DNA from: a bacterium
Lineage (GTDB): Bacteria > Patescibacteriota > Minisyncoccia > Phycocordibacterales > VMGT01
Length of the DNA stretch: 64,000 bases
NCBI GenBank assembly: GCA_030697645.1
Contig: JAUYPI010000004.1
Coordinates: forward strand, 1,141 to 65,140
Direction of reading: 5' to 3'
Positions 1,203-49,392 of the stretch are shown one piece after another. The number at the start of each line of letters is the position of its first letter. Positions within the stretch are counted from its first letter, which is position 1. A model generated the notes under the pieces. The model had not been told where the DNA came from and searched no databases. It worked only from the letters and a program-made list of their open reading frames with translations. Made by a program: the position numbers and the translations under genes.

Positions 1203-3701
1203 ATGATGAACCACAGAACGCGTATTTTTTTGCGTGCGGGGTCACCCGTATTCCTCCTCTTTTTTGCGTTGTCCGTTGGCGCGCAGAATCCCTTTGACGC
1301 GCTGCAATTTCCGATCGCCGGGCTTGGCGACTGCGCCTCGGTTGAGGGATGCAAGCTCTATTGTGATGAGCCGGAGAACGCTCGCGCCTGCAGTGAGTGG
1401 GCGCGGGCGAATGGTTTTGGATCTGGCGGTCGTCGGGAGGACGGTGATCAAGAGCGCAGTGGCGAGGCAGGAGGGGATGAAGAACGTATCGAACACGCAC
1501 GAGAGACGCTCGAGCGGACGACTGGTCCCGGCGGCTGCAGCAGCCCCGAGGAGTGCGATGTGTATTGTTCAGAAGAGGCGCACCACGATGAGTGCCGTGC
1601 ATTTGCGCGCGAGCACGGTTTTGATACGCACGAGGAGGAACGGATCGGGCCTGGCGGCTGCCATTCCGAAGATGAGTGTCAGTCGTACTGTCGTAACCCT
1701 GAACACACGAGAGAGTGCGTTGCATTTGGCCTTAAAAACGGCAACTTGAGCCCGGAGGAGGCGGCGCGAATACTTTCACAGATTGAACGCGCGCATACGA
1801 TTGGTGCTGAAGCGCGAAATCGCGCTCGAGAGGCAGGCGAGCGCGTGCAAGGCGAAGTGGGCGAGCGTATCCGCGGCAAGATTGAGCGGTTTGATGAGAG
1901 ACGTGGGCGCGGCCCGCGCGGCCCTCGGATCGAGGTGCGCGAGCCGAAGATTGACGAGGAGAAGGCGCGGCAAATCCTCGAGACCGAAGGGGGACCCGGC
2001 GGCTGCAGCACGTTTGATGCGTGCGAGCAATTTTGTAATGCTCCCGAGAACGGCGAGACGTGCATGCAATTTGCGCTCGAGCATGATCTCATCGCGGGCG
2101 ACGAGGCCGCGCGGATGCGGCGGCTCATGGATTCAACAGGCCCCGGGGGATGTCGCGGAAGGGCATGCGAGCAGTATTGTGAAGCGCCAGGCCACGAGCT
2201 TGAGTGTATTGAGCACGCGGAGGGACTCGGTTTGATTGATCCCACGGAGGCAGAGCGCGTTCGTGGCTTCATGCGCCGCGGCGAAGAGCGCGGGCTCGGC
2301 TGCCGCGGCCGCGAGTGCGAGCGCTATTGCGAAGACCCGGCGCATCGCGACCAGTGCTTCGAGGCGTTTAAGGATCTCATCCCCGAGGAGGAGCGGGCGC
2401 ACATTGAAAAGTTCAAAGCAATTGAAGCACGCGTCGAGTCAGCGGGTGGACCCGGCGGGTGCAGAGCAGAGGAAGAATGCCATCAGTATTGCTCCGACTC
2501 CGCGCATTTTGACGAGTGTGCCGCGTTTGCCGTCGAGGCGGGGCTCTTCTCTCCCGAGGATGCGGAAAAGATGCTGAAGCAATTTATTAATGTCGAGAAT
2601 TTTCGAGGTGGTGGGCCGGAGGGTGTCACGGCCCCGCCGGGATTTGAGGGTTTCGGCGAGCTCGGCGAGCCACCGCCGTTTGAGCATTTTGAAGATTTTG
2701 AACTGCCGGAGGGCGTGCCCCCGGAAGCACGGGAGCAGTTCAAGGCGCAGTTTGAGCAGGGGTTTCAAGGTGAATACCGGCAGCGGTTTGAAGAAGAGTT
2801 CCGGGCGCGTGCCGGACGCTTTGGGGAGTTTCGGCAACAGTTTGGCGGGGAAGGCGGCGAGCACGGGCAGTTTCCCGGTGGATTCGGAGCACCGCAGGGT
2901 GGAATGCCTCCGGGTGGTTTCGGCGGGGGTTCTGGCGAGGGCGGTTTTCAAGGATTTCCGCAGCAGGGAGGTGAGACGAGCGTGCAACGGACAAGCGGCG
3001 GCATCTCGCACATCAGTCTGAAGACAAACGACTCCGGTCTCTTCACGCTTCGCATCGAGGACTCGGACGGTATCGCGAGCTTTGCGCTCGATCCCGCCGA
3101 GGGCTCACGCTACGGCGGGGATGTGCCGAACTGCCCGCGTCGGCATGAATCAACCACCGTGCGCCTCAGCGGCTCGTTCCCGTACACGCTTACTTACACC
3201 GACTGCGCGGGGAACACCACTGAACGCACGCTCTCGCAGAACGAAGCGTACGGCACTCCAACTGCGCCGCCCCAGGGATCGTTGCCGGGAGCGGGCACTG
3301 TACCAGTCCAGCCCCCGGGAGTTGGGGGAATTCCGCAAGGGTTTGACCCGCGTTCGGTCGGCCTCCCCGAAGGCTTCCAGTTCGACGGGAGCAACATCCC
3401 GCCGGAGTTCCTCACAGACGAACTCCGCGCGCAGATTGAAGAGATGCGACGCCGTGAGACCGAGAACCAATACCACGAGCAGTACCAACAACAATCTGAT
3501 CAACAGTATCAGCAGCAGTATAATCAGCAGTACCAACAACAATACGACCAGCAGCAACAAAATTTCACACCGCCGGAATATCAGTACCCCCCACCCGAGG
3601 GCACCGAGCAGCACATAGACTCCACAGCCCCAACCGGCTTTTTCCTCTCCCGCATGATCGCGAACGCCGCGCGGGCGTTCCTGGAGTTGTTGGGAAGGTA
3701 G
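1203..3701 (+). CDS. secreted cysteine-rich repeat protein (7 tandem 4-Cys modules) with Gly/Phe-rich and Gln/Tyr-rich low-complexity tail
   Basis: Start moved to internal ATG 1203 after the palindromic element; signal-peptide-like N-terminus; repeats GPGGC-x5-C-x3-C-x8-C...; C-terminal QYQQQYNQQYQQQY. Confidence 0.6.
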   Translation: MMNHRTRIFLRAGSPVFLLFFALSVGAQNPFDALQFPIAGLGDCASVEGCKLYCDEPENARACSEWARANGFGSGGRREDGDQERSGEAGGDEERIEHARETLERTTGPGGCSSPEECDVYCSEEAHHDECRAFAREHGFDTHEEERIGPGGCHSEDECQSYCRNPEHTRECVAFGLKNGNLSPEEAARILSQIERAHTIGAEARNRAREAGERVQGEVGERIRGKIERFDERRGRGPRGPRIEVREPKIDEEKARQILETEGGPGGCSTFDACEQFCNAPENGETCMQFALEHDLIAGDEAARMRRLMDSTGPGGCRGRACEQYCEAPGHELECIEHAEGLGLIDPTEAERVRGFMRRGEERGLGCRGRECERYCEDPAHRDQCFEAFKDLIPEEERAHIEKFKAIEARVESAGGPGGCRAEEECHQYCSDSAHFDECAAFAVEAGLFSPEDAEKMLKQFINVENFRGGGPEGVTAPPGFEGFGELGEPPPFEHFEDFELPEGVPPEAREQFKAQFEQGFQGEYRQRFEEEFRARAGRFGEFRQQFGGEGGEHGQFPGGFGAPQGGMPPGGFGGGSGEGGFQGFPQQGGETSVQRTSGGISHISLKTNDSGLFTLRIEDSDGIASFALDPAEGSRYGGDVPNCPRRHESTTVRLSGSFPYTLTYTDCAGNTTERTLSQNEAYGTPTAPPQGSLPGAGTVPVQPPGVGGIPQGFDPRSVGLPEGFQFDGSNIPPEFLTDELRAQIEEMRRRETENQYHEQYQQQSDQQYQQQYNQQYQQQYDQQQQNFTPPEYQYPPPEGTEQHIDSTAPTGFFLSRMIANAARAFLELLGR

Positions 3702-7235: not shown

Positions 7236-7414
7236 TAGACCTCTTGCATAACCCGCTCCTGCTACAATTTCTGATTTTTGGCTGCGACTTCGTCGAGTTT
7301 CGCAAAATGATTCTCGTCGTACAACAAGTACGCCGTCGAATCATTTTGCTCACTCTCCTCGTCTCGCTCAAAAATTAGAAATCTCGCGACGAAGCGGGTT
7401 ATGCAAGAAGTCTA
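7236..7414. repeat. ~180-bp TIR-bounded palindromic element (family TAGACCTCTTGCATAACCCG...CGGGTTATGCAAGAGGTCTA), copy 1
   Basis: One of 6 near-identical copies; internal nested inverted repeats (gcaaaatggttc/gaaccattttgc etc.); ends at the nucleotide before the ATG of the 7415 gene. Confidence 0.85.
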
Positions 7415-18972: not shown

Positions 18973-19917
18973 TTACTCGTGCTCAATCCGGATTCGATCT
19001 GTCCTTGTCGTTTTTTGATGCACGAATCTGTCCACAGTTTGCTCTATGTTTGACCGTTCCACAACGGGGAGCCAAAGGATGTTTTGGTTTCGTTTGAACC
19101 AGGTTTTTTGGCGGCGGGCGTATTGCCAGATTTTTTGTTCGAGTATGCGCTCGAGTTCGTTGCGTGTGAGCATGCCACGTATGAATCGAGAGACATAGCG
19201 GTACTCGAGCCCGAATGAGTCGAGCCGCTGCCATGAGAGCTTGTCTTTCTCGTGCAAGCGCGCGACCTCGGCGATGAGGCCGCGCCGCAGGCGCACTTTG
19301 AGGCGCACGGCAATGCGCCCGCGAAGCTCATTGTCGGGGAGTGCGAGGCCGATATAGAGCACGTCGTACTTTTCGCGCGATTGAATCTTCGGGACGCTCC
19401 CGAGCGCGCGCGCGATCTCAATCGCGCGGATGAGGCGACGTTGATTGTGCGGCTCGATTGTTTTTGCGCGTCGGGGGTCGAGCCGCACGAGCTCCTCGAG
19501 GAGCTCGTGCGGCGAGCGTTTCCCGAGCTCTCGTCGCAGCGCCGGGTCCGCGGGTACGTCGGGGAGGAGTGTGTCTCCGAGAAGCGCATCAATGTAGAAC
19601 CCGGTGCCGCCGACGATAACAGGGAGCTTGCCGCGGCGGATGATACCCTGAATCGCGCGCTCCGCGTGCCGCGCGTACTGCGCCGCGCTCCACTGCCTCC
19701 TCGGCGAGGCGACGTCGAGCAGGTGGTGTGGGATGCCCCGCATCTCGCGCGCCGTTACCTTTCCCGTGCCAATATCGAGCCCGCGGTAAATCTGCCGTGA
19801 GTCCGCAGATACAACCTCGCCGCGAAAGAGCCGCGCGAGCTCGACCGCAAGCGCGCTCTTGCCCACCGCCGTCGGGCCGACAATGACCACAATTTTGTGC
19901 TTTTGCTTTGTAATCAT
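18973..19917 (-). CDS. miaA: tRNA dimethylallyltransferase
   Basis: P-loop VIVGPTAVGKS, SADSRQIYRGLDIGTGK, and HHLLD motifs; 314 aa. Confidence 0.85.
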   Translation of the reverse strand: MITKQKHKIVVIVGPTAVGKSALAVELARLFRGEVVSADSRQIYRGLDIGTGKVTAREMRGIPHHLLDVASPRRQWSAAQYARHAERAIQGIIRRGKLPVIVGGTGFYIDALLGDTLLPDVPADPALRRELGKRSPHELLEELVRLDPRRAKTIEPHNQRRLIRAIEIARALGSVPKIQSREKYDVLYIGLALPDNELRGRIAVRLKVRLRRGLIAEVARLHEKDKLSWQRLDSFGLEYRYVSRFIRGMLTRNELERILEQKIWQYARRQKTWFKRNQNILWLPVVERSNIEQTVDRFVHQKTTRTDRIRIEHE

Positions 19918-24049: not shown

Positions 24050-24131
24050 TGGGCAAGGAGGGAGTCGAACCCTCAACCCTTGCGGGACAGCGTCCTAAGC
24101 GCTGCGCGTATGCCATTTCCGCCACTTGCCC
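24050..24131 (-). tRNA. tRNA-Leu (anticodon UAG) with long variable arm
   Basis: Manual fold: acceptor GGGCAAG/CTTGCCC, anticodon stem CAGCG/CGCTG with loop CTTAGGA, variable hairpin CCCGCAAGGG, T-arm GAGGGTTCGACTCCCTC. Confidence 0.7.
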
Positions 24132-24466: not shown

Positions 24467-24538
24467 GCCCCCGTAGTTCAATGGATAGAACTGGCCCGTC
24501 CTAAGGGCTCGATGTGGGTTCGATTCCTGCCGGGGGCA
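24467..24538 (+). tRNA. tRNA-Arg (anticodon CCU)
   Basis: Manual fold: acceptor GCCCCCG/CGGGGGC, D-arm GTTC/GAAC, anticodon stem GGCCC/GGGCT with loop GTCCTAA, T-loop TTCGATT. Confidence 0.75.
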
Positions 24539-24666: not shown

Positions 24667-24930
24667 TTGCTCATGGACCCAAATGACCGGCAGTTGCTCA
24701 AGCACGTCGCTCTGCTTGTCGAAGAGAACACGGTGATTCTCCGCAAGCTCCTCCGGGCTGAGAAGATGCGCCGTCTCGTCTCCGCGCTCTACTGGCTCGC
24801 GGTGCTTGCGATTTCGCTTGGCGCTTACTACTTCATCCAACCATACCTCGACAAGCTGCTTTCGATCTACGGAAACGTCCGCGGCGGCGTCGAGAACGTA
24901 GGAGGCACGATTCTCAAGGGCGGCGGGTGA
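24667..24930 (+). CDS. hypothetical small membrane protein
   Basis: 87 aa, one TM helix, Gly-rich C-terminus. Confidence 0.3.
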   Translation: MLMDPNDRQLLKHVALLVEENTVILRKLLRAEKMRRLVSALYWLAVLAISLGAYYFIQPYLDKLLSIYGNVRGGVENVGGTILKGGG

Positions 24931-25685
24931 GGTTATCCACAGGTTGCGTGCTAAAATTGAACTCTCTGTGCTATGCTATATGCATGCGGTCAGATCAAGA
25001 ACGCGCACGTAAGATGCGTATCGGCGGTTACAGTTATCAAGAAATTCACCAGACTCTTGGAGTCCCAAAGTCGACCCTTTCGTCTTGGTTTTCTGGGCTG
25101 CTACTCTCACGGTCAGCACAAAGAAGGATAAATCAGAGAGTGAATCAAGGGCTTGTAAATGGATTAGTGAGACGCAATAAACTTCAGACGCATTTGGCGC
25201 GACGGCGAGCGAGAGAAACCCGCGAGCTTTCTGCGGGTGAGGTGGGCAAACTTTCAGAGCGCGAGTTGCTGCTCATAGGAGTTGCATTATATTGGGCAGA
25301 GGGTTATAAGAAATCTGTTATCAAAAATGGTAAAGAGCGTACATTCCATGCGATTAGTTTTACTAACACAGACCCGGCGATGGTTCGGCTCTTTGTTCGT
25401 TTTTTGACGGAAATTATCCATCTGCCTCAATCAAAAATACGTTTCCACGTGCGACTGTTCCCACATATCAATGAGGATGACGCATTACGATACTGGCTGG
25501 AAGCGTCCGGACTCCCAGAAGAGAGCGCCCTTAAACCTACGGTTGTCACTAGCGTGTCGAGTCTTCGGAAGCGACCCTTTAATCGGTTGCCTTACGGTGT
25601 TGTTCAGATTAGGGCATGCGATACCAAAAATTTTTATCGGATTATGGGATGGATCGACGGAATAAAACAGTTCGTTACAGTTTAA
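24927..25685 (+). CDS. HTH-domain protein with weak LAGLIDADG-like segments (candidate free-standing homing-endonuclease-like gene)
   Basis: N-terminal HTH (GYSYQEIHQTLGVPKSTLSSWF); LLLIGVALYWAEGYK and ISFTNTD weakly resemble LAGLIDADG blocks; ends 8 nt before the intron-containing tRNA; start uncertain (24927 or 24984). Confidence 0.4.
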   Translation: MRLSTGCVLKLNSLCYAICMRSDQERARKMRIGGYSYQEIHQTLGVPKSTLSSWFSGLLLSRSAQRRINQRVNQGLVNGLVRRNKLQTHLARRRARETRELSAGEVGKLSERELLLIGVALYWAEGYKKSVIKNGKERTFHAISFTNTDPAMVRLFVRFLTEIIHLPQSKIRFHVRLFPHINEDDALRYWLEASGLPEESALKPTVVTSVSSLRKRPFNRLPYGVVQIRACDTKNFYRIMGWIDGIKQFVTV

Positions 25686-25692
25686 TACTAAT

Positions 25693-26055
25693 GCCGCGGT
25701 AGCTCAGTGGTAGAGCGCTTGCCTGAAATCTTCGGGCCGTTTCGCAGTAATGCGGAAATGAAAATCGGGCGAAATGCTGGAAACCCTAACGTCGCAGTCG
25801 AGGGCAATCAGCACCCCGCCGTAAAGTCCCATAAGGAAACTTTACGGCAAGGTCAGAGACTATCCTTTTTTGGAGTACTGGATGTATGACGTCACGGGCG
25901 AATCTTAGGAAGTTCGTCGTTACGATATATCTCGGAAGCACCCGATCTCCCCTGATCAGCAATGGCGGGGAGAGTGATATAGTCCAATCCTCAAGGTGAC
26001 TTGAGTTCCATTTTGGAAGAGCAAGGCGTCGGGTGTTCGATTCACCCCCGCGGCA
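25693..26055 (+). tRNA. tRNA-Phe (anticodon GAA) interrupted by a group I intron in the anticodon loop
   Basis: Exon 1 GCCGCGGTAGCTCAGTGGTAGAGCGCTTGCCT; exon 2 GAAGAGCAAGGCGTCGGGTGTTCGATTCACCCCCGCGGCA; spliced loop CTGAAGA; all stems complementary. Confidence 0.7.
25725..26015 (+). ncRNA. group I self-splicing intron (~291 nt, no ORF)
   Basis: P1 GCCU|GAAAUCUUC-GGGC with the U.G pair at the 5' splice site; R element GGUCAGAGACUAUCC (cf. GUUCAGAGACUACA); S element GAUAUAGUCC exact; ends in G before exon 2. Confidence 0.65.
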
Positions 26056-26060
26056 CACAA

Positions 26061-26239
26061 TAGACCTCTTGCATAACCCGCTCCTGCTGCGATTTTTGAT
26101 TTTTGGCTGCGACTTCGTCAGCCGTCGCAAAATGGTTCTCGCCGTACAACAAGTACGCCGTCGAACCATTTTGCTTGTCTTCCTCGTCTCGCTCAAAAAT
26201 CAAAAATCTCGCCACGAAACGGGTTATGCAAGAGGTCTA
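26061..26239. repeat. ~180-bp TIR-bounded palindromic element, copy 2
   Basis: Starts 5 nt after the tRNA-Phe 3' end; TIRs tagacctcttgcataacccg / cgggttatgcaagaggtcta. Confidence 0.85.
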
Positions 26240-26255
26240 ATTTTTTCGCAGTCTT

Positions 26256-34533: not shown

Positions 34534-34714
34534 TAGACTTCTTGCATAACCCGTTTCGTGGCGAGATTTTTGATTTTTGAGCGAGACGAGGAAGACAAGC
34601 AAAATGGTTCGACGGCGTTACTCGGTTGTACGGCGAGAACCATTTTGTGAAGTCTGACGAAGTCGCAGCCAAAAATCAAAAATCGCAGCAGGAGCGGGTT
34701 ATGCAAGATGTCTA
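34534..34714. repeat. ~180-bp TIR-bounded palindromic element, copy 4 (inverted orientation)
   Basis: Reverse complement of copies 1/2; its terminal gcaagATGtcta supplies the first in-frame ATG of the secY ORF. Confidence 0.85.
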
Positions 34715-39947: not shown

Positions 39948-40126
39948 TAGACTTCTTCGGAAACCCCTTTCGTGGCGAAATTTTTGATTTTTGAGCGAGA
40001 CGAGGAAAGCGAGCAAAGTGACTCGACGGCGTACTTGTTGTACGATGAGAGTCATTTTGCGAAGCTTGACAAAGTCGCAGCCAAAAATCAAAAATTGCAG
40101 CAGAAGGGAGTTTCCGAAGAAGTCTA
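39948..40126. repeat. ~180-bp TIR-bounded palindromic element, copy 5 (inverted orientation, variant TIR)
   Basis: tagacttcttcggaaacccc...ggagtttccgaagaagtcta; left boundary of the surface-protein island. Confidence 0.85.
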
Positions 40127-45428: not shown

Positions 45429-48400
45429 TACGGCGTTCGTGCGGCGCGTGCTCGCGGGCGTGATGGTTGTCGCTCTCCTTATGGTGAGCGCGGTACCGCT
45501 CTCAGTGATTGCCGAGGACGGAGGCGGGGATGTTGTCGCGACCGAGGCCACTCTAGGTGAGAGAGGGACTGACGGGACAGATGGCACCGACGGCGCGGAC
45601 GGTCGCGATCGCGGCGAGCGTGGGACGCGAGATGGTAGCGATGGAGAAGACGGCGGCACGGGCGAGGGCGGCGAGGATGGGAGCGGGGATGAGAGTGGCA
45701 CGGAAGGCACATCCCCTGGAGACGGGACGAGCGGCGAGGATGGCACGGGTACCGAGGAGACTCCAGACGGCGCGGACGGGACTTCTTCAAGCGACACGGG
45801 CAACCAGAGCACGAGCGGCGAAGGGGACACGAGCATCACGACTGGTGCTGCCACGGCCGTGACTGACGTAACGACCAAAGGGAACGTGAATAGCACCGAC
45901 ACAGAGGCTCTAAGCGAGGACGGAAGCGGCAACATTGATGGGAGCGGGAGCGCAAACGGTGGCGGTGGAGGCACCACAGATTCCGGGTCCGAGACCCCAC
46001 CTGCTGCTGATGATGCTGCTGATGATGCTGATGCGCACACGCGCGACGACCGCCGCGACAGCAAAGTGCTCGATAAACGGCCACGTGACAGTGCGACAAC
46101 GACATCGCTTGAGACCATCATCGAGTCTGAAAACGATATCACCGTTGCAAACGAGAATGAGACTCTGGCGTCGAGCGGCTTAAACAGCGCGGGTGGAAGC
46201 GGCTCGGTCAGCGTCACGACCGGCACGTCAACCGCATTTGCAAATATACTCAACGCGGTGAACGTGAACCTGGTGAACTCAAGCGGCCTCATGCTTTTCT
46301 TCAACAGTCTTTTCGGCTCGCTCGGCACGCTTGATCTCCGGACCGCGCTCGGAGGAGATGATGCGCTTATCGGGGGCGGCATTTTTGGCGAGCGAGAACC
46401 CTCGATCGGCACGTGCACCTTCAGTGGCTGCGCGGGCGATGTTTCGACGCGGATATACGCCTCGAGCACCGCGCGGATCTTAAACGACATCATCGTACGC
46501 TCGATCGCGGGGCAGAATGTGGCAACGACGAGTGGCGAGCTCGCACGCATTGATTCCGGCGATGCGCTCGCCGGAGCGAACGTCGTCAATGTTGCGAACA
46601 CGAATATCGTCAATTCAAACTATCTCCTGCTTGCCCTCAACGCCTTCGGCGACTGGGCGGGGGACCTCGTATTCCCGAATGGTGATTTTTTCAAACAAAT
46701 TTTTGGCGGCGGGGCTCGCGGGTCTGGCGACATCGAGGAGGACGAAGAAGGCAGCGAAGCGCACTCACTCGTCGCGAGTACAACGATCGCAAGTACGAAC
46801 ACCGCGGGAGTAGAGAATGAACTCGACGTTGACGCTCGATCGGGCGGGAACGCCGCGACATCGACTCTCGGGAGCGCCGAAATCGAGACCGGCTCCTCGG
46901 CCGCGCTGTCTCAGGTGGTGAACCGGCTCAATCAGAACATCATCGGCGGGAATTCGATGCTTGTACTCCTTCAGATACATGGCGACTGGGCGGGTAATCT
47001 CTTCAACGTCCCCGAGGGGATTCTCTGGGAGAGGACGCCCGGGGGAGTCGCGATTTGGAATGATCCGAATTATGCGGGAGGAGCGGTGGGAGCGGGTACC
47101 AGCGGCTCCAGCGAGGGAGAGGAGGGCAGTCTCGGAGTAATCGAAGACGCTCTCGTGCCGCTCTCGGAGCTCACCGTTTCGCGCGGTGACCGCGAGGCGC
47201 GCCGCGCAGCGCGCGACGCCTCGGACGAGGAGCGTCGCGGTACCACGACGACCGAGATTCTTCACCAAAACGTCGCGGAAATCGCCAACAACGTGAAAGT
47301 CCTCGCGCTCACCGGAGAGAACCGAGCGCAAAGTGTTGGCGATTCACTCATCACGAGCGGGAACGCGCTTGCCGCGGCGAACATCCTCAACATCGCAAAC
47401 ACGAACGTGATCGGTGCGAACTGGATGCTCGCGCTCGTCAATATCTTCGGCGACTGGAGCGGCAACCTCTCGTTCGGCGAGCCGGACCTCTGGATAGGCA
47501 CGACTGTTGACGCGCCGCGGAGTCCCCTAGAGGCCGGCGACGAGCTCACGTATCACTTTACGGTCGCAAACCGTGGCGACGCGCGCGCAAGCAACGTGTG
47601 GCTCAATGCGCGAGCCACCGGCGATCTCATTGCGTTTGATCGGAGCTTTACCGATTCGCTCGGCGACGCGCATTTCTATCTGGGTACGCTCGCGCCCGGC
47701 GATGTGCGGGAGCTCTCGCTCACGGGGCATCTCGATACGCCGCTTCCGTTCGGGAGGCACACGATTGACCATACGTTCGCGATCGCAAGCTACGAGCCGG
47801 AGACGAACCGCGCCGACAACACGGAGACACTCTCGCTCTTTGCATTTGGCGGCGAGGCGCCGGCGACGGGTAGCAGTACCGGCAGCGGCGAGAGCGGCAG
47901 CGGCGCGGGTTCCGGTTCCGGGGAGAGTGGAAGTGGTGCGGGCAGTGGCGGTTCGGACGTTAGTGCAGGCGGGGGCTCGTCAGACGAGAGTGCAGGCGGC
48001 GGTTCAGGCAGTGGCGGTAGTGACGGTGGTATTGGCACAGGCGATACAAACTCCGGCGGGAATACTGGCAGCACAGGGGGCAGCAGCGGCGGCAGTCAAA
48101 GCGGCAGCGGGGGCGCCTCTTCAGGTGGTTCTGGAGGAGGGGGTGGCGGCATTTACTATACGCCGCCAGCGGACTTAGAGATAGAAAAGCGCAACGGCGC
48201 GACCTCACCGGTTCCCGCCGGAAGCTCGGTGGACTACACCGTAGTGATTCAGAATGACGGCCTCGGCGAGGCGTACCACGCCGTGCTGGTCGATGTTCTG
48301 AAAGACAAAGACGGCACGGTGATTCACGAGGAGAGTTGGTCACTTGAGACGATTTATCCAAGCGAGGAGGTGACGGTGAAGTATACGATCGAGTTCAGCC

Positions 48401-49146
48401 TGAATACCGCTCCCGGAACCTACACGAACAGCGCCTACGTGAAGGCCTACGACGGCCATCCCTCGCTTGATCCATTTTACGGTTCTGCCGCGGATTCTCC
48501 GACGGTGACAAGCACGGTTGAGATCAGCAGCGCTTCGGTTTCGTCTGGCTCCTCTGGTACGGGAGGTGGAGGCGCGAACACGACGACGACAAATACAACA
48601 AACACGAATTCGACGGGCACAACACCGCCACCCGCGGCACCCGTGCCGCTATCCCAGAACGAGACCGCGAGCTCGACTAGCGCGACCACAAGCAGCACGC
48701 CCACCACCACTCCGCGAGCGACCTCCTTCAGAGCGACGGCTATCGCAGCAGCGCCAGCGCCGACGAATCCCATTGCCGCGGCGCTCTCGCCTTTCTCGCC
48801 CGCCTTGCTCGGGGCCACCCTCCCTGCGCCAAGTGGCACTCCGGCGTTTGAAGATTTTGAAGATTCAGGTGCCGCCCGCGCGGCGGTGCGAGAGAGCGGT
48901 ATCGCCCGGGAGCGGATTCTTCCTACACTGTCCTCTACGGGCGCGGAACCAGCAAGCGAGACATCGGGAGCACTCACCTCGCGAGACGAGGGGTCGCTTA
49001 CACCCCTCTCTGGCCTCGCGCACGCGGCAGCGGCATTTCTCGCGAGTCTCCCCATTCCGGCATCCATATTTTTGCCGATATTTCTCTTGGTCCTTGTGCT
49101 TGTTGGCATGCTGCTCTTCACTCGTCCTTCTGGCGCCCGGGCATAG
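45400..49146 (+). CDS. giant (1248 aa) cell-surface repeat protein with collagen-like G-X-Y tract, repeated beta modules and C-terminal TM anchor
   Basis: Signal peptide; GERGTDGTDGTDGADGRDRGERGTRDGSDGEDGG; >=4 copies of module ...TSGNALAAANILNIANTNVIGANWMLALVNIFGDWSGNL...; DUF11/CARDB-like segment; C-terminal hydrophobic anchor LPIFLLVLVLVGMLLF. Confidence 0.65.
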   Translation: MSFLSSGFFNTAFVRRVLAGVMVVALLMVSAVPLSVIAEDGGGDVVATEATLGERGTDGTDGTDGADGRDRGERGTRDGSDGEDGGTGEGGEDGSGDESGTEGTSPGDGTSGEDGTGTEETPDGADGTSSSDTGNQSTSGEGDTSITTGAATAVTDVTTKGNVNSTDTEALSEDGSGNIDGSGSANGGGGGTTDSGSETPPAADDAADDADAHTRDDRRDSKVLDKRPRDSATTTSLETIIESENDITVANENETLASSGLNSAGGSGSVSVTTGTSTAFANILNAVNVNLVNSSGLMLFFNSLFGSLGTLDLRTALGGDDALIGGGIFGEREPSIGTCTFSGCAGDVSTRIYASSTARILNDIIVRSIAGQNVATTSGELARIDSGDALAGANVVNVANTNIVNSNYLLLALNAFGDWAGDLVFPNGDFFKQIFGGGARGSGDIEEDEEGSEAHSLVASTTIASTNTAGVENELDVDARSGGNAATSTLGSAEIETGSSAALSQVVNRLNQNIIGGNSMLVLLQIHGDWAGNLFNVPEGILWERTPGGVAIWNDPNYAGGAVGAGTSGSSEGEEGSLGVIEDALVPLSELTVSRGDREARRAARDASDEERRGTTTTEILHQNVAEIANNVKVLALTGENRAQSVGDSLITSGNALAAANILNIANTNVIGANWMLALVNIFGDWSGNLSFGEPDLWIGTTVDAPRSPLEAGDELTYHFTVANRGDARASNVWLNARATGDLIAFDRSFTDSLGDAHFYLGTLAPGDVRELSLTGHLDTPLPFGRHTIDHTFAIASYEPETNRADNTETLSLFAFGGEAPATGSSTGSGESGSGAGSGSGESGSGAGSGGSDVSAGGGSSDESAGGGSGSGGSDGGIGTGDTNSGGNTGSTGGSSGGSQSGSGGASSGGSGGGGGGIYYTPPADLEIEKRNGATSPVPAGSSVDYTVVIQNDGLGEAYHAVLVDVLKDKDGTVIHEESWSLETIYPSEEVTVKYTIEFSLNTAPGTYTNSAYVKAYDGHPSLDPFYGSAADSPTVTSTVEISSASVSSGSSGTGGGGANTTTTNTTNTNSTGTTPPPAAPVPLSQNETASSTSATTSSTPTTTPRATSFRATAIAAAPAPTNPIAAALSPFSPALLGATLPAPSGTPAFEDFEDSGAARAAVRESGIARERILPTLSSTGAEPASETSGALTSRDEGSLTPLSGLAHAAAAFLASLPIPASIFLPIFLLVLVLVGMLLFTRPSGARA

Positions 49147-49176
49147 GCCCATGGCTCGTCATGGCGCACGGCGTAT

Positions 49177-49355
49177 TAGACCTCTTGCATAACCCGCTCC
49201 TGCTGCGATTTTTGATTTTTGGCTGCGACTTCGTCGGACTTCGCAAAATGGTTCTCGCCGTACAACAAGTACGCCGTCGAACCATTTTGCTTGTCTTCCT
49301 CGTCTCGCTCAAAAATCAAAAATCTCGCCACGAAACGGGTTATGTAAGAGGTCTA
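49177..49355. repeat. ~180-bp TIR-bounded palindromic element, copy 6
   Basis: Right boundary of the surface-protein island; forward orientation. Confidence 0.85.
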
Positions 49356-49392
49356 TTGACAGCGCGTTTTGTATTGCTACACTATGGTTATT

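Follow-up and report, generated by a model that had tools for sequence, protein, structure and literature searches.

An ORF-less group I intron predicted to self-splice between U33 and G34 of tRNA-Phe(GAA) in a Patescibacteria/Parcubacteria-type bacterium

The 64,000-nucleotide stretch of DNA analysed here, referred to as the window, is a segment of bacterial chromosome with approximately 56% G+C in which a tRNA-Phe gene is split within its anticodon loop by an intervening sequence of 291 nucleotides. The split gene and its upstream neighbour are organised as follows.

24927-25685, plus strand: conserved HTH-like gene just upstream of tRNA-Phe (weak HTH_23 match)
25693-25724, plus strand: tRNA-Phe exon 1, positions 1-33, ending in C32 U33 (ARAGORN with intron option; sequence)
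25725-26015, plus strand: group I intron, 291 nt, ORF-less, last base omega-G26015 (RF00028, ARAGORN)
26016-26055, plus strand: tRNA-Phe exon 2, positions 34-73, with anticodon GAA, G37 and discriminator A73 (sequence, ARAGORN)

The two exons, when joined, yield a 72-nt cloverleaf with the anticodon loop CUGAAGA; ARAGORN calls the spliced sequence tRNA-Phe(gaa), with a regular cloverleaf, a 7-bp acceptor stem and a 7-nt loop, and, run with its intron option on the genomic sequence, returns tRNA-Phe(gaa) i(34,291). The 3' end of the gene, as contained in exon 2 (26016-26055), does not encode CCA. The body of the tRNA has U20, G44, U59, U60 and A73, matching what we take to be the identity elements of E. 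coli tRNA-Phe, and a blastn comparison of the spliced tRNA with E. coli genomes did not discriminate, the top rows listed, ranked by coverage times identity, being those of a tRNA-Asn on a plasmid (78% identity, E = 0.04). Over the 64-kb window the split gene is missed both by ARAGORN in its default mode and by the Rfam tRNA model, the only tRNAs that these find being a tRNA-Leu (24050-24131, minus strand) and a tRNA-Arg(CCT) (24467-24538). A promoter scan around the gene found no sigma-70-like promoter upstream of tRNA-Phe.

The covariance model RF00028 (Intron_gpI) matches positions 25715-26006 over its full length (1-253) with 65.1 bits (E = 2.9e-14), the curated Rfam gathering score being 50 bits; the conserved core P3-P4-P5-P6-P7-P8 with its P3/P7 pseudoknot is present in the intron. 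In this alignment the consensus splice-site U corresponds to U25724 and its G partner to G25734; from this U.G wobble in P1 it follows that the insertion site is 33/34. The boundary between intron and exon 2 is placed by ARAGORN one base later, after G34, because a G opens both the intron and exon 2, and the sequence of the mature tRNA-Phe is not changed by this 1-nt shift. The longest ORF lying wholly within the intron has 37 aa, the ORFs overlapping the intron have no Pfam match at E values up to 0.1, and no homing endonuclease of the LAGLIDADG, GIY-YIG, HNH or PD-(D/E)XK type is encoded by the ORFs inside or overlapping the intron. The initial annotation had recovered the tRNA-Phe(GAA) cloverleaf by joining 25693-25724 with 26016-26055, had placed between them, after U33, an ORF-less group I intron of about 291 nt with a GCCU/GGGC P1 helix and a U.G pair, and had recognised R and S elements and a terminal G; the ARAGORN calls on spliced and genomic sequence, the Rfam alignment and the covariation among 87 homologues bear these assignments out, with R at 25851-25865, S at 25976-25985 and the terminal G at G26015. 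The parts of the intron are listed below, alignment A2 being the 87-row alignment of homologues described further on.

25721-25737, plus strand: P1, exon GCCU (25721-25724) with intron GGGC (25734-25737) (Rfam alignment; covariation)
25729-25737, plus strand: internal guide sequence 5'-UCUUCGGGC-3' (P10 helix fully paired throughout the 86 distinct rows)
25740-25757, plus strand: P2 hairpin (6/6 pairs change on both sides)
25764-25771, plus strand: P3 5' strand, partner 25939-25946 (Rfam alignment; 3 pairs compensatory)
25775-25813, plus strand: P4-P5 domain (helices scored in alignment A2)
25814-25852, plus strand: P6/P6a hairpin (Rfam alignment and MFE fold; MAFFT alignment poor here)
25851-25865, plus strand: R element GGTCAGAGACTATCC (sequence)
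25856-25862, plus strand: P7 5' strand, within the R element, partner 25980-25985 within S (invariant in 86 distinct rows)
25863-25935, plus strand: P7.1 (25863-25874) and long P7.2 (25878-25935), between P7 and P3' (MFE fold; covariation)
25939-25946, plus strand: P3 3' strand (Rfam alignment; alignment A2)
25947-25972, plus strand: P8 hairpin (6/6 pairs compensatory)
25976-25985, plus strand: S element GATATAGTCC (= GAUAUAGUCC), holding the P7 3' strand (sequence, Rfam alignment, alignment A2)
25990-26005, plus strand: P9 hairpin, found in only part of the family (6/6 pairs compensatory in the 17 rows having P9)

The U25724.G25734 wobble of P1 sits at the 5' splice site, and P1 can be extended by pairing of GAA (25725-27) with UUC (25731-33). 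This extension and P10, the 5-bp helix formed by the guide UCUUC with G34-A38 (GAAGA, 26016-26020) of exon 2, are mutually exclusive. The P7 pseudoknot is the location of the guanosine-binding site. Compared with its relatives, the window intron has three compensatory swaps in P4 (25776-25778/25810-25812; UGCUGG/UCAGCA vs UCGGGG/UCCCGA in the family), also present in the metagenome locus L084, and, in P3, a C25770.A25940 mismatch in place of the U.G of the family. Together with the UUCCAUUUUG that follows it, the P9 hairpin (25990-26015) scores as intrinsic-terminator-like within the intron; this P9 with its U-rich tail is probably coincidental, since such matches are no commoner than in shuffled sequence.

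Helices P7.1 and P7.2 between P7 and P3' are the hallmark of subgroup IA, seen for example in the introns of T4 td and Twort. In the window, the segment 25864-25938 (75 nt) folds, at minimum free energy, as one small and one long hairpin, and the corresponding two helices covary, so that on this folding model the window intron carries the IA feature and its periphery is IA-like. Assignment to subgroup IC3 was considered and rejected: instead of a compact P7-P3' core, 75 nt with two covarying helices intervene.

The relatives used for these comparisons came from a metagenome scan with a pattern consisting of the tRNA-Phe D-arm followed by CTGAA and then by the guide TCTTCGG, exon 2 being left unconstrained. 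At least 120 loci carry the pattern; in 102 of those listed ARAGORN calls tRNA-Phe(gaa) with an intron, and in 99 among the matches listed U-1, omega-G and the loop CUGAAGA are all present. Intron length among the matches listed ranges from 195 to 402 nt (median 226), and the RF00028 gathering score is passed by 11 of 15 sampled loci of the family. Three loci with aberrant ARAGORN boundaries (L075, L147, L184) were left out. The closest relative among the matches listed is L129, which is 82% identical across the whole intron. The pattern undercounts the family because some Phe introns carry the guide UCUUU, as does the sequence Mba55.Phe.2Ug of the seed alignment of Williams discussed below. 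Wolfebacteria-type tRNA-Phe introns with this guide (L193-L195, 2712-3018) open with A (CCU|AGAAUCUUUGGGCC).

Pairing of the guide with the 5' exon was scored straight from the sequences rather than from alignment A2, because MAFFT mis-registers the first exon columns. Exon nucleotides 30 and 31 are paired with the guide in all 87 distinct sequences, nucleotide 30 being C or G and its guide partner correspondingly G or C (U once), a covariation that supports the 5' splice site directly by comparison of sequences. Alignment A2 (87 rows, MAFFT, anchored on the window) served for scoring the hand-named structure: 80.6% of its cells are paired vs 70.4% after shuffling, and its covariation score is 0.243 vs 0.107 for shuffled alignments, with 0 of 500 reaching 0.243, and sliding the 3' partners yields no score above 0.133; the scored structure was drawn from the window sequence and is thus somewhat favourable to it, and kinship among the rows inflates the shuffle statistics. 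Changes on both sides of a pair are seen in A2 for 6/6 pairs of P2, 3 of P3, 4 of P4, 4/4 of P5, 2/3 of P7.1, 9/10 of P7.2, 6/6 of P8 and 6/6 of P9, while P7 and P10 are invariant in the 86 distinct rows. Besides the first exon columns, P6 is mis-registered by MAFFT in A2.

A second scan, of species-representative genomes, used the spacing of R, S and T-loop of the window intron and gave 65 loci, mostly from Patescibacteria, Saccharibacteria and Gammaproteobacteria MAGs. No Phe intron was found among these 65 loci. The P7-to-S spacing of most Phe introns is shorter, and the source genome seems not to be one of the species representatives. The R-to-S gap of these loci (L001-L065) is 98-128 nt, which leaves room for an insertion of the size of P7.1/P7.2; the split tRNAs are, by ARAGORN calls, Asn, Gln(CTG), Leu(CAA), Asp, Arg(CCT/TCT/CCG), Lys(TTT) and a nominal "Thr", and the hosts include Patescibacteria, Gammaproteobacteria MAGs, two cultured Vibrio species, Fulvivirga, Oligoflexus and Omnitrophota. 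The calls Thr(tgt) 33/34 among the 65 loci are probably Asn(GUU) 35/36, a misassignment by ARAGORN that has been warned of (PMC13011429).

The initial annotation had regarded a tRNA-Phe host with an insertion at 33/34 as unusual and had listed tRNA-Leu, -fMet, -Ile and -Arg as the known bacterial hosts. The list reflects the state of knowledge before 2020, and the claim of rarity does not hold. Williams (bioRxiv 2020, 10.1101/2020.01.27.920355) raised the number of classes of split bacterial tRNAs from the classical four to 21, and the seed alignment of that study includes Mba55.Phe.2Ug, in which tRNA-Phe is interrupted after loop nucleotide 2 (U33) and omega-G is present. Nakagawa et al. 2026 (mSystems, PMC13011429, Table 1/S3) reported, with its sequence, a Phe(GAA) intron at 33/34 in Doudnabacteria GCA_016699995.1, and 33/34 is the common, classical site of tRNA-fMet (PMC13011429). 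With its tRNA-Phe(GAA) host, U33/G34 site, U-1 and omega-G, the window intron belongs to Phe.2Ug as defined, and together with the metagenome loci counted above this makes it a member of a described class, common in groundwater metagenomes, rather than a new host or site.

The Doudnabacteria intron is the nearest described counterpart. Phylum, host tRNA, the 33/34 site and the exon-2 start GAAGA are those of the window, an ORF is absent from both introns, and the two are near-identical in P1 and guide (GCCU|GAA..UCUUCGGGCC), in J2/3-P3 (AAAUCGGG), in the R core (AGAGACUA) and in S (UGAUAUAGUCCAA). They differ in length (291 nt in the window vs 211 nt) and in that P7.1 and the long P7.2 of the window are replaced in GCA_016699995.1 by one hairpin whose loop is GUGAGCCCAACAAUAA; the P9 hairpin, the three P4 pair swaps and the P3 C.A are likewise features of the window intron. 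The tRNA introns of Patescibacteria are reported to be nearly all IA, and none IC (PMC13011429). Among them, the IA introns that split tRNA-Asn and tRNA-Asp at 35/36, retrieved by the pattern AGACTA..GATATAGTC..T-loop, share phylum and core architecture with the window intron and are mostly ORF-less like it, but they reside in another host tRNA and at 35/36 instead of 33/34, and their guide differs because host tRNA and insertion site differ.

The similarity to introns outside this phylum is more partial. The cyanobacterial tRNA-fMet intron occupies position 33/34, as does that of the window, and tRNA-fMet and the classical IC3 introns share with it the location in the anticodon loop, U-1 in a U.G wobble and omega-G. 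The IC3 hosts are tRNA-Leu(UAA), split at 34/35, and the Azoarcus tRNA-Ile and Agrobacterium tRNA-Arg, split at 36/37 (10.1101/2020.01.27.920355). In IC3 tRNA introns, however, P7 is joined straight to P3', where the window has P7.1/P7.2, and some fMet introns encode PD-(D/E)XK endonucleases (PMC13011429), whereas the window intron encodes none. A P7.1/P7.2 periphery like that of the window is found in phage IA introns (those of Twort-like phages and kayviruses of Staphylococcus, those of SPO1-like Bacillus phages and T4 td), which, unlike the window intron, interrupt genes for proteins and in many cases contain an endonuclease ORF; blastn gave, in genomes of phages of Staphylococcus, Bacillus, Enterococcus, Lactococcus and Alteromonas, matches of 46-75 nt at 76-85% identity to the P2-P5 region of the query, in candidate introns.

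The gene just upstream of tRNA-Phe encodes a protein of about 230-250 aa in which Pfam finds only a weak N-terminal match to HTH_23. It adjoins the split tRNA-Phe in dozens of metagenome loci among the matches listed, ending in several of them 2-10 nt before the tRNA, and the names given to its homologues are Parcubacteria, Wolfebacteria or Patescibacteria; it served as an anchor for locating orthologous sites that carry or lack the intron. Directly downstream of two homologues (P0144 and P0151), the contigs have an intron-less 76-nt tRNA-Phe(GAA), whose D-arm and anticodon loop are, by inspection, common to the tRNA-Phe of the window, and next to a third homologue (P0184, Wolfebacteria) the same site is occupied by an intron of 234 nt that uses the variant guide UCUUUGGGC. 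The intron-less orthologues read CCTGAAGAG, which is the exact ligation product predicted for the window gene. Finally, an independent assembly, the NCBI MAG GCA_034376905.1 (contig JAXMIX010000189.1), has the split gene without a single difference in its 363 nt and matches 3.6 kb of the window at 98.5% identity.

Bacterial tRNA-Phe typically has A37. G37 (26019 in the window) is present in all 87 intron-bearing genes and in two intron-less orthologue lineages (L187, 2699-2774, and L190, 2720-2795); a tRNA-Phe having G37 cannot be a substrate of MiaA (i6A37), the gene of which is encoded in the window at 18973-19917 (minus strand). The proteins most similar to this MiaA bear the name Patescibacteria or Parcubacteria group bacterium, among them a partial protein with 100% identity across the aligned region. 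The idea that G37 is imposed by the 5-bp P10 was rejected, the intron-less orthologues also having CUGAAGA, and the sequence comparison marks G37 as a trait of the tRNA-Phe of these lineages, not as one imposed by the intron.

The region downstream of the gene is marked by a palindromic, MITE-like repeat of about 180 bp, bounded by terminal inverted repeats of 20 nt that match perfectly (TAGACCTCTTGCATAACCCG) and containing further, nested inverted repeats, a copy of which begins 5 nt downstream of tRNA-Phe. The copies in the window are the following.

26061-26239: MITE-like repeat, the copy next to tRNA-Phe
7236-7414: MITE-like repeat
34534-34714: MITE-like repeat
49177-49355: MITE-like repeat
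39948-40126: MITE-like repeat, more divergent copy

Four copies have an average column identity of about 84%, the fifth being more divergent, and the number of matches expected by chance is 0; the flanks suggest a TA target duplication. The contig of GCA_034376905.1 (JAXMIX010000189.1; locus L186) follows the window through tRNA-Phe and then, in place of the Zincin_1 gene, continues with the inverted 47231-49358 region, which contains a 1248-aa ORF; the switch point lies at 3419-3605 of this contig, between window 26061-26241 and 49358-47231, and the junction reflects either a rearrangement brought about by the repeat or, in one of the two assemblies, a chimera. For the Zincin_1 protein downstream of tRNA-Phe in the window, no exact-protein match is on record.

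Taken together, these data let us conclude with high confidence that the window contains a bona fide ORF-less group I intron with IA-like periphery at U33/G34 of the tRNA-Phe(GAA) of a Patescibacteria/Parcubacteria-type host, most likely vertically inherited and predicted to be self-splicing. Vertical inheritance is the most likely course because the intron lacks a homing endonuclease. With 64 kb of genome in view, the tRNA-Phe gene of the window is probably the only one of its genome: a single tRNA-Phe gene is found, by ARAGORN and by tFind alike, in the complete intron-bearing Doudnabacteria genome (PMC13011429), and one genome rarely has, for a given anticodon, both a copy with an intron and a copy without (PMC13011429). 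The intron is thus most likely a self-splicing one, the removal of which would be needed for the tRNA-Phe of the cell.

The steps of splicing can be inferred from the anatomy of the intron and established group I chemistry. The exon sequence GCCU (the G tentatively numbered 30, followed by C31, C32 and U33) would pair with the guide GGGC to form P1 with its U33.G wobble, and an exogenous guanosine bound in P7 would attack after U33. The guide UCUUC would then hold G34-A38 (GAAGA) of exon 2 in P10, omega-G26015 would move into the G site, and the free 3'-OH of U33 would attack after omega-G26015, with the result that the exons would be ligated to give the loop CUGAAGA and the 291-nt intron would be released. 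The published in vitro assays, which showed self-splicing, covered Asn and Asp introns only (PMC13011429). As to its persistence, the intron would be kept because its imprecise loss would destroy an essential tRNA.

Presence and absence of the intron vary among Parcubacteria-type lineages at one and the same locus, the "homing site" CCU|GAAGA being identical in the two cases and an endonuclease being absent. We give a small chance to the view that the Phe intron is still mobile, through reverse splicing or an endonuclease acting in trans, or else works as an RNA-level valve on the only supply of tRNA-Phe. A regulatory role, in which the intron gates the maturation of the sole tRNA-Phe in response to guanosine, Mg2+ or folding and so controls translation at the RNA level in a genome poor in regulators, has been raised as a speculation by Nakagawa et al. 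(PMC13011429) and would be in keeping with the retention of the intron in many reduced genomes despite the lack of an endonuclease; its chance is slim, since the sequence indicates no sensor, close relatives have an intron-less gene at the same locus, and the retention is explained equally well if an intron in an anticodon loop is hard to delete precisely.

That the intron is instead a decayed, splicing-dead relic and the locus a tRNA pseudogene, tRNA-Phe being supplied by a gene outside the 64-kb window, is very improbable. The C.A mismatch in P3 could be taken as a sign of decay, but it is evidently tolerated, as the 82%-identical L129 has it too; all core helices are intact, P7, guide, U-1 and omega-G correspond to the family consensus, and the identical gene recurs in the second assembly, GCA_034376905.1. 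It is true that 64 kb of genome are in view, a stretch in which ARAGORN finds two other tRNAs (Leu and Arg), yet complete Patescibacteria genomes, the intron-bearing one included, have a single tRNA-Phe gene. An error in the boundaries or in the tRNA identity, with another site and anticodon as in the case of Asn(35/36) vs Thr(33/34), is scarcely credible in spite of the ARAGORN boundary lying 1 nt later, after G34, because U25724 is the sole U in the exon-1 loop, only omega-G26015 yields a 7-nt loop, the 1-nt shift leaves the mature sequence unchanged, P1 and P10 both indicate CU|GAAGA, and the intron-less orthologues at the same locus are the predicted ligation product.

A self-splicing, vertically inherited intron in what is probably the sole tRNA-Phe gene is therefore the reading that we retain, and it has a practical corollary: since default ARAGORN and the Rfam tRNA model miss the gene, a genome of this kind would be scored as being without tRNA-Phe and its completeness would be underestimated unless intron-aware tools are used. 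The questions that the locus raises have already been posed in the 2020 and 2026 papers. What is added is covariation support, through alignment A2, for the structure of the Phe intron, the documentation, for one orthologous locus, of alleles with the intron and alleles without it, and one more case, along with a large metagenome set, of IA-type introns residing in essential tRNAs of the reduced genomes of Patescibacteria; were the intron indeed mobile or a valve, it would be more than a frozen passenger in these genomes.
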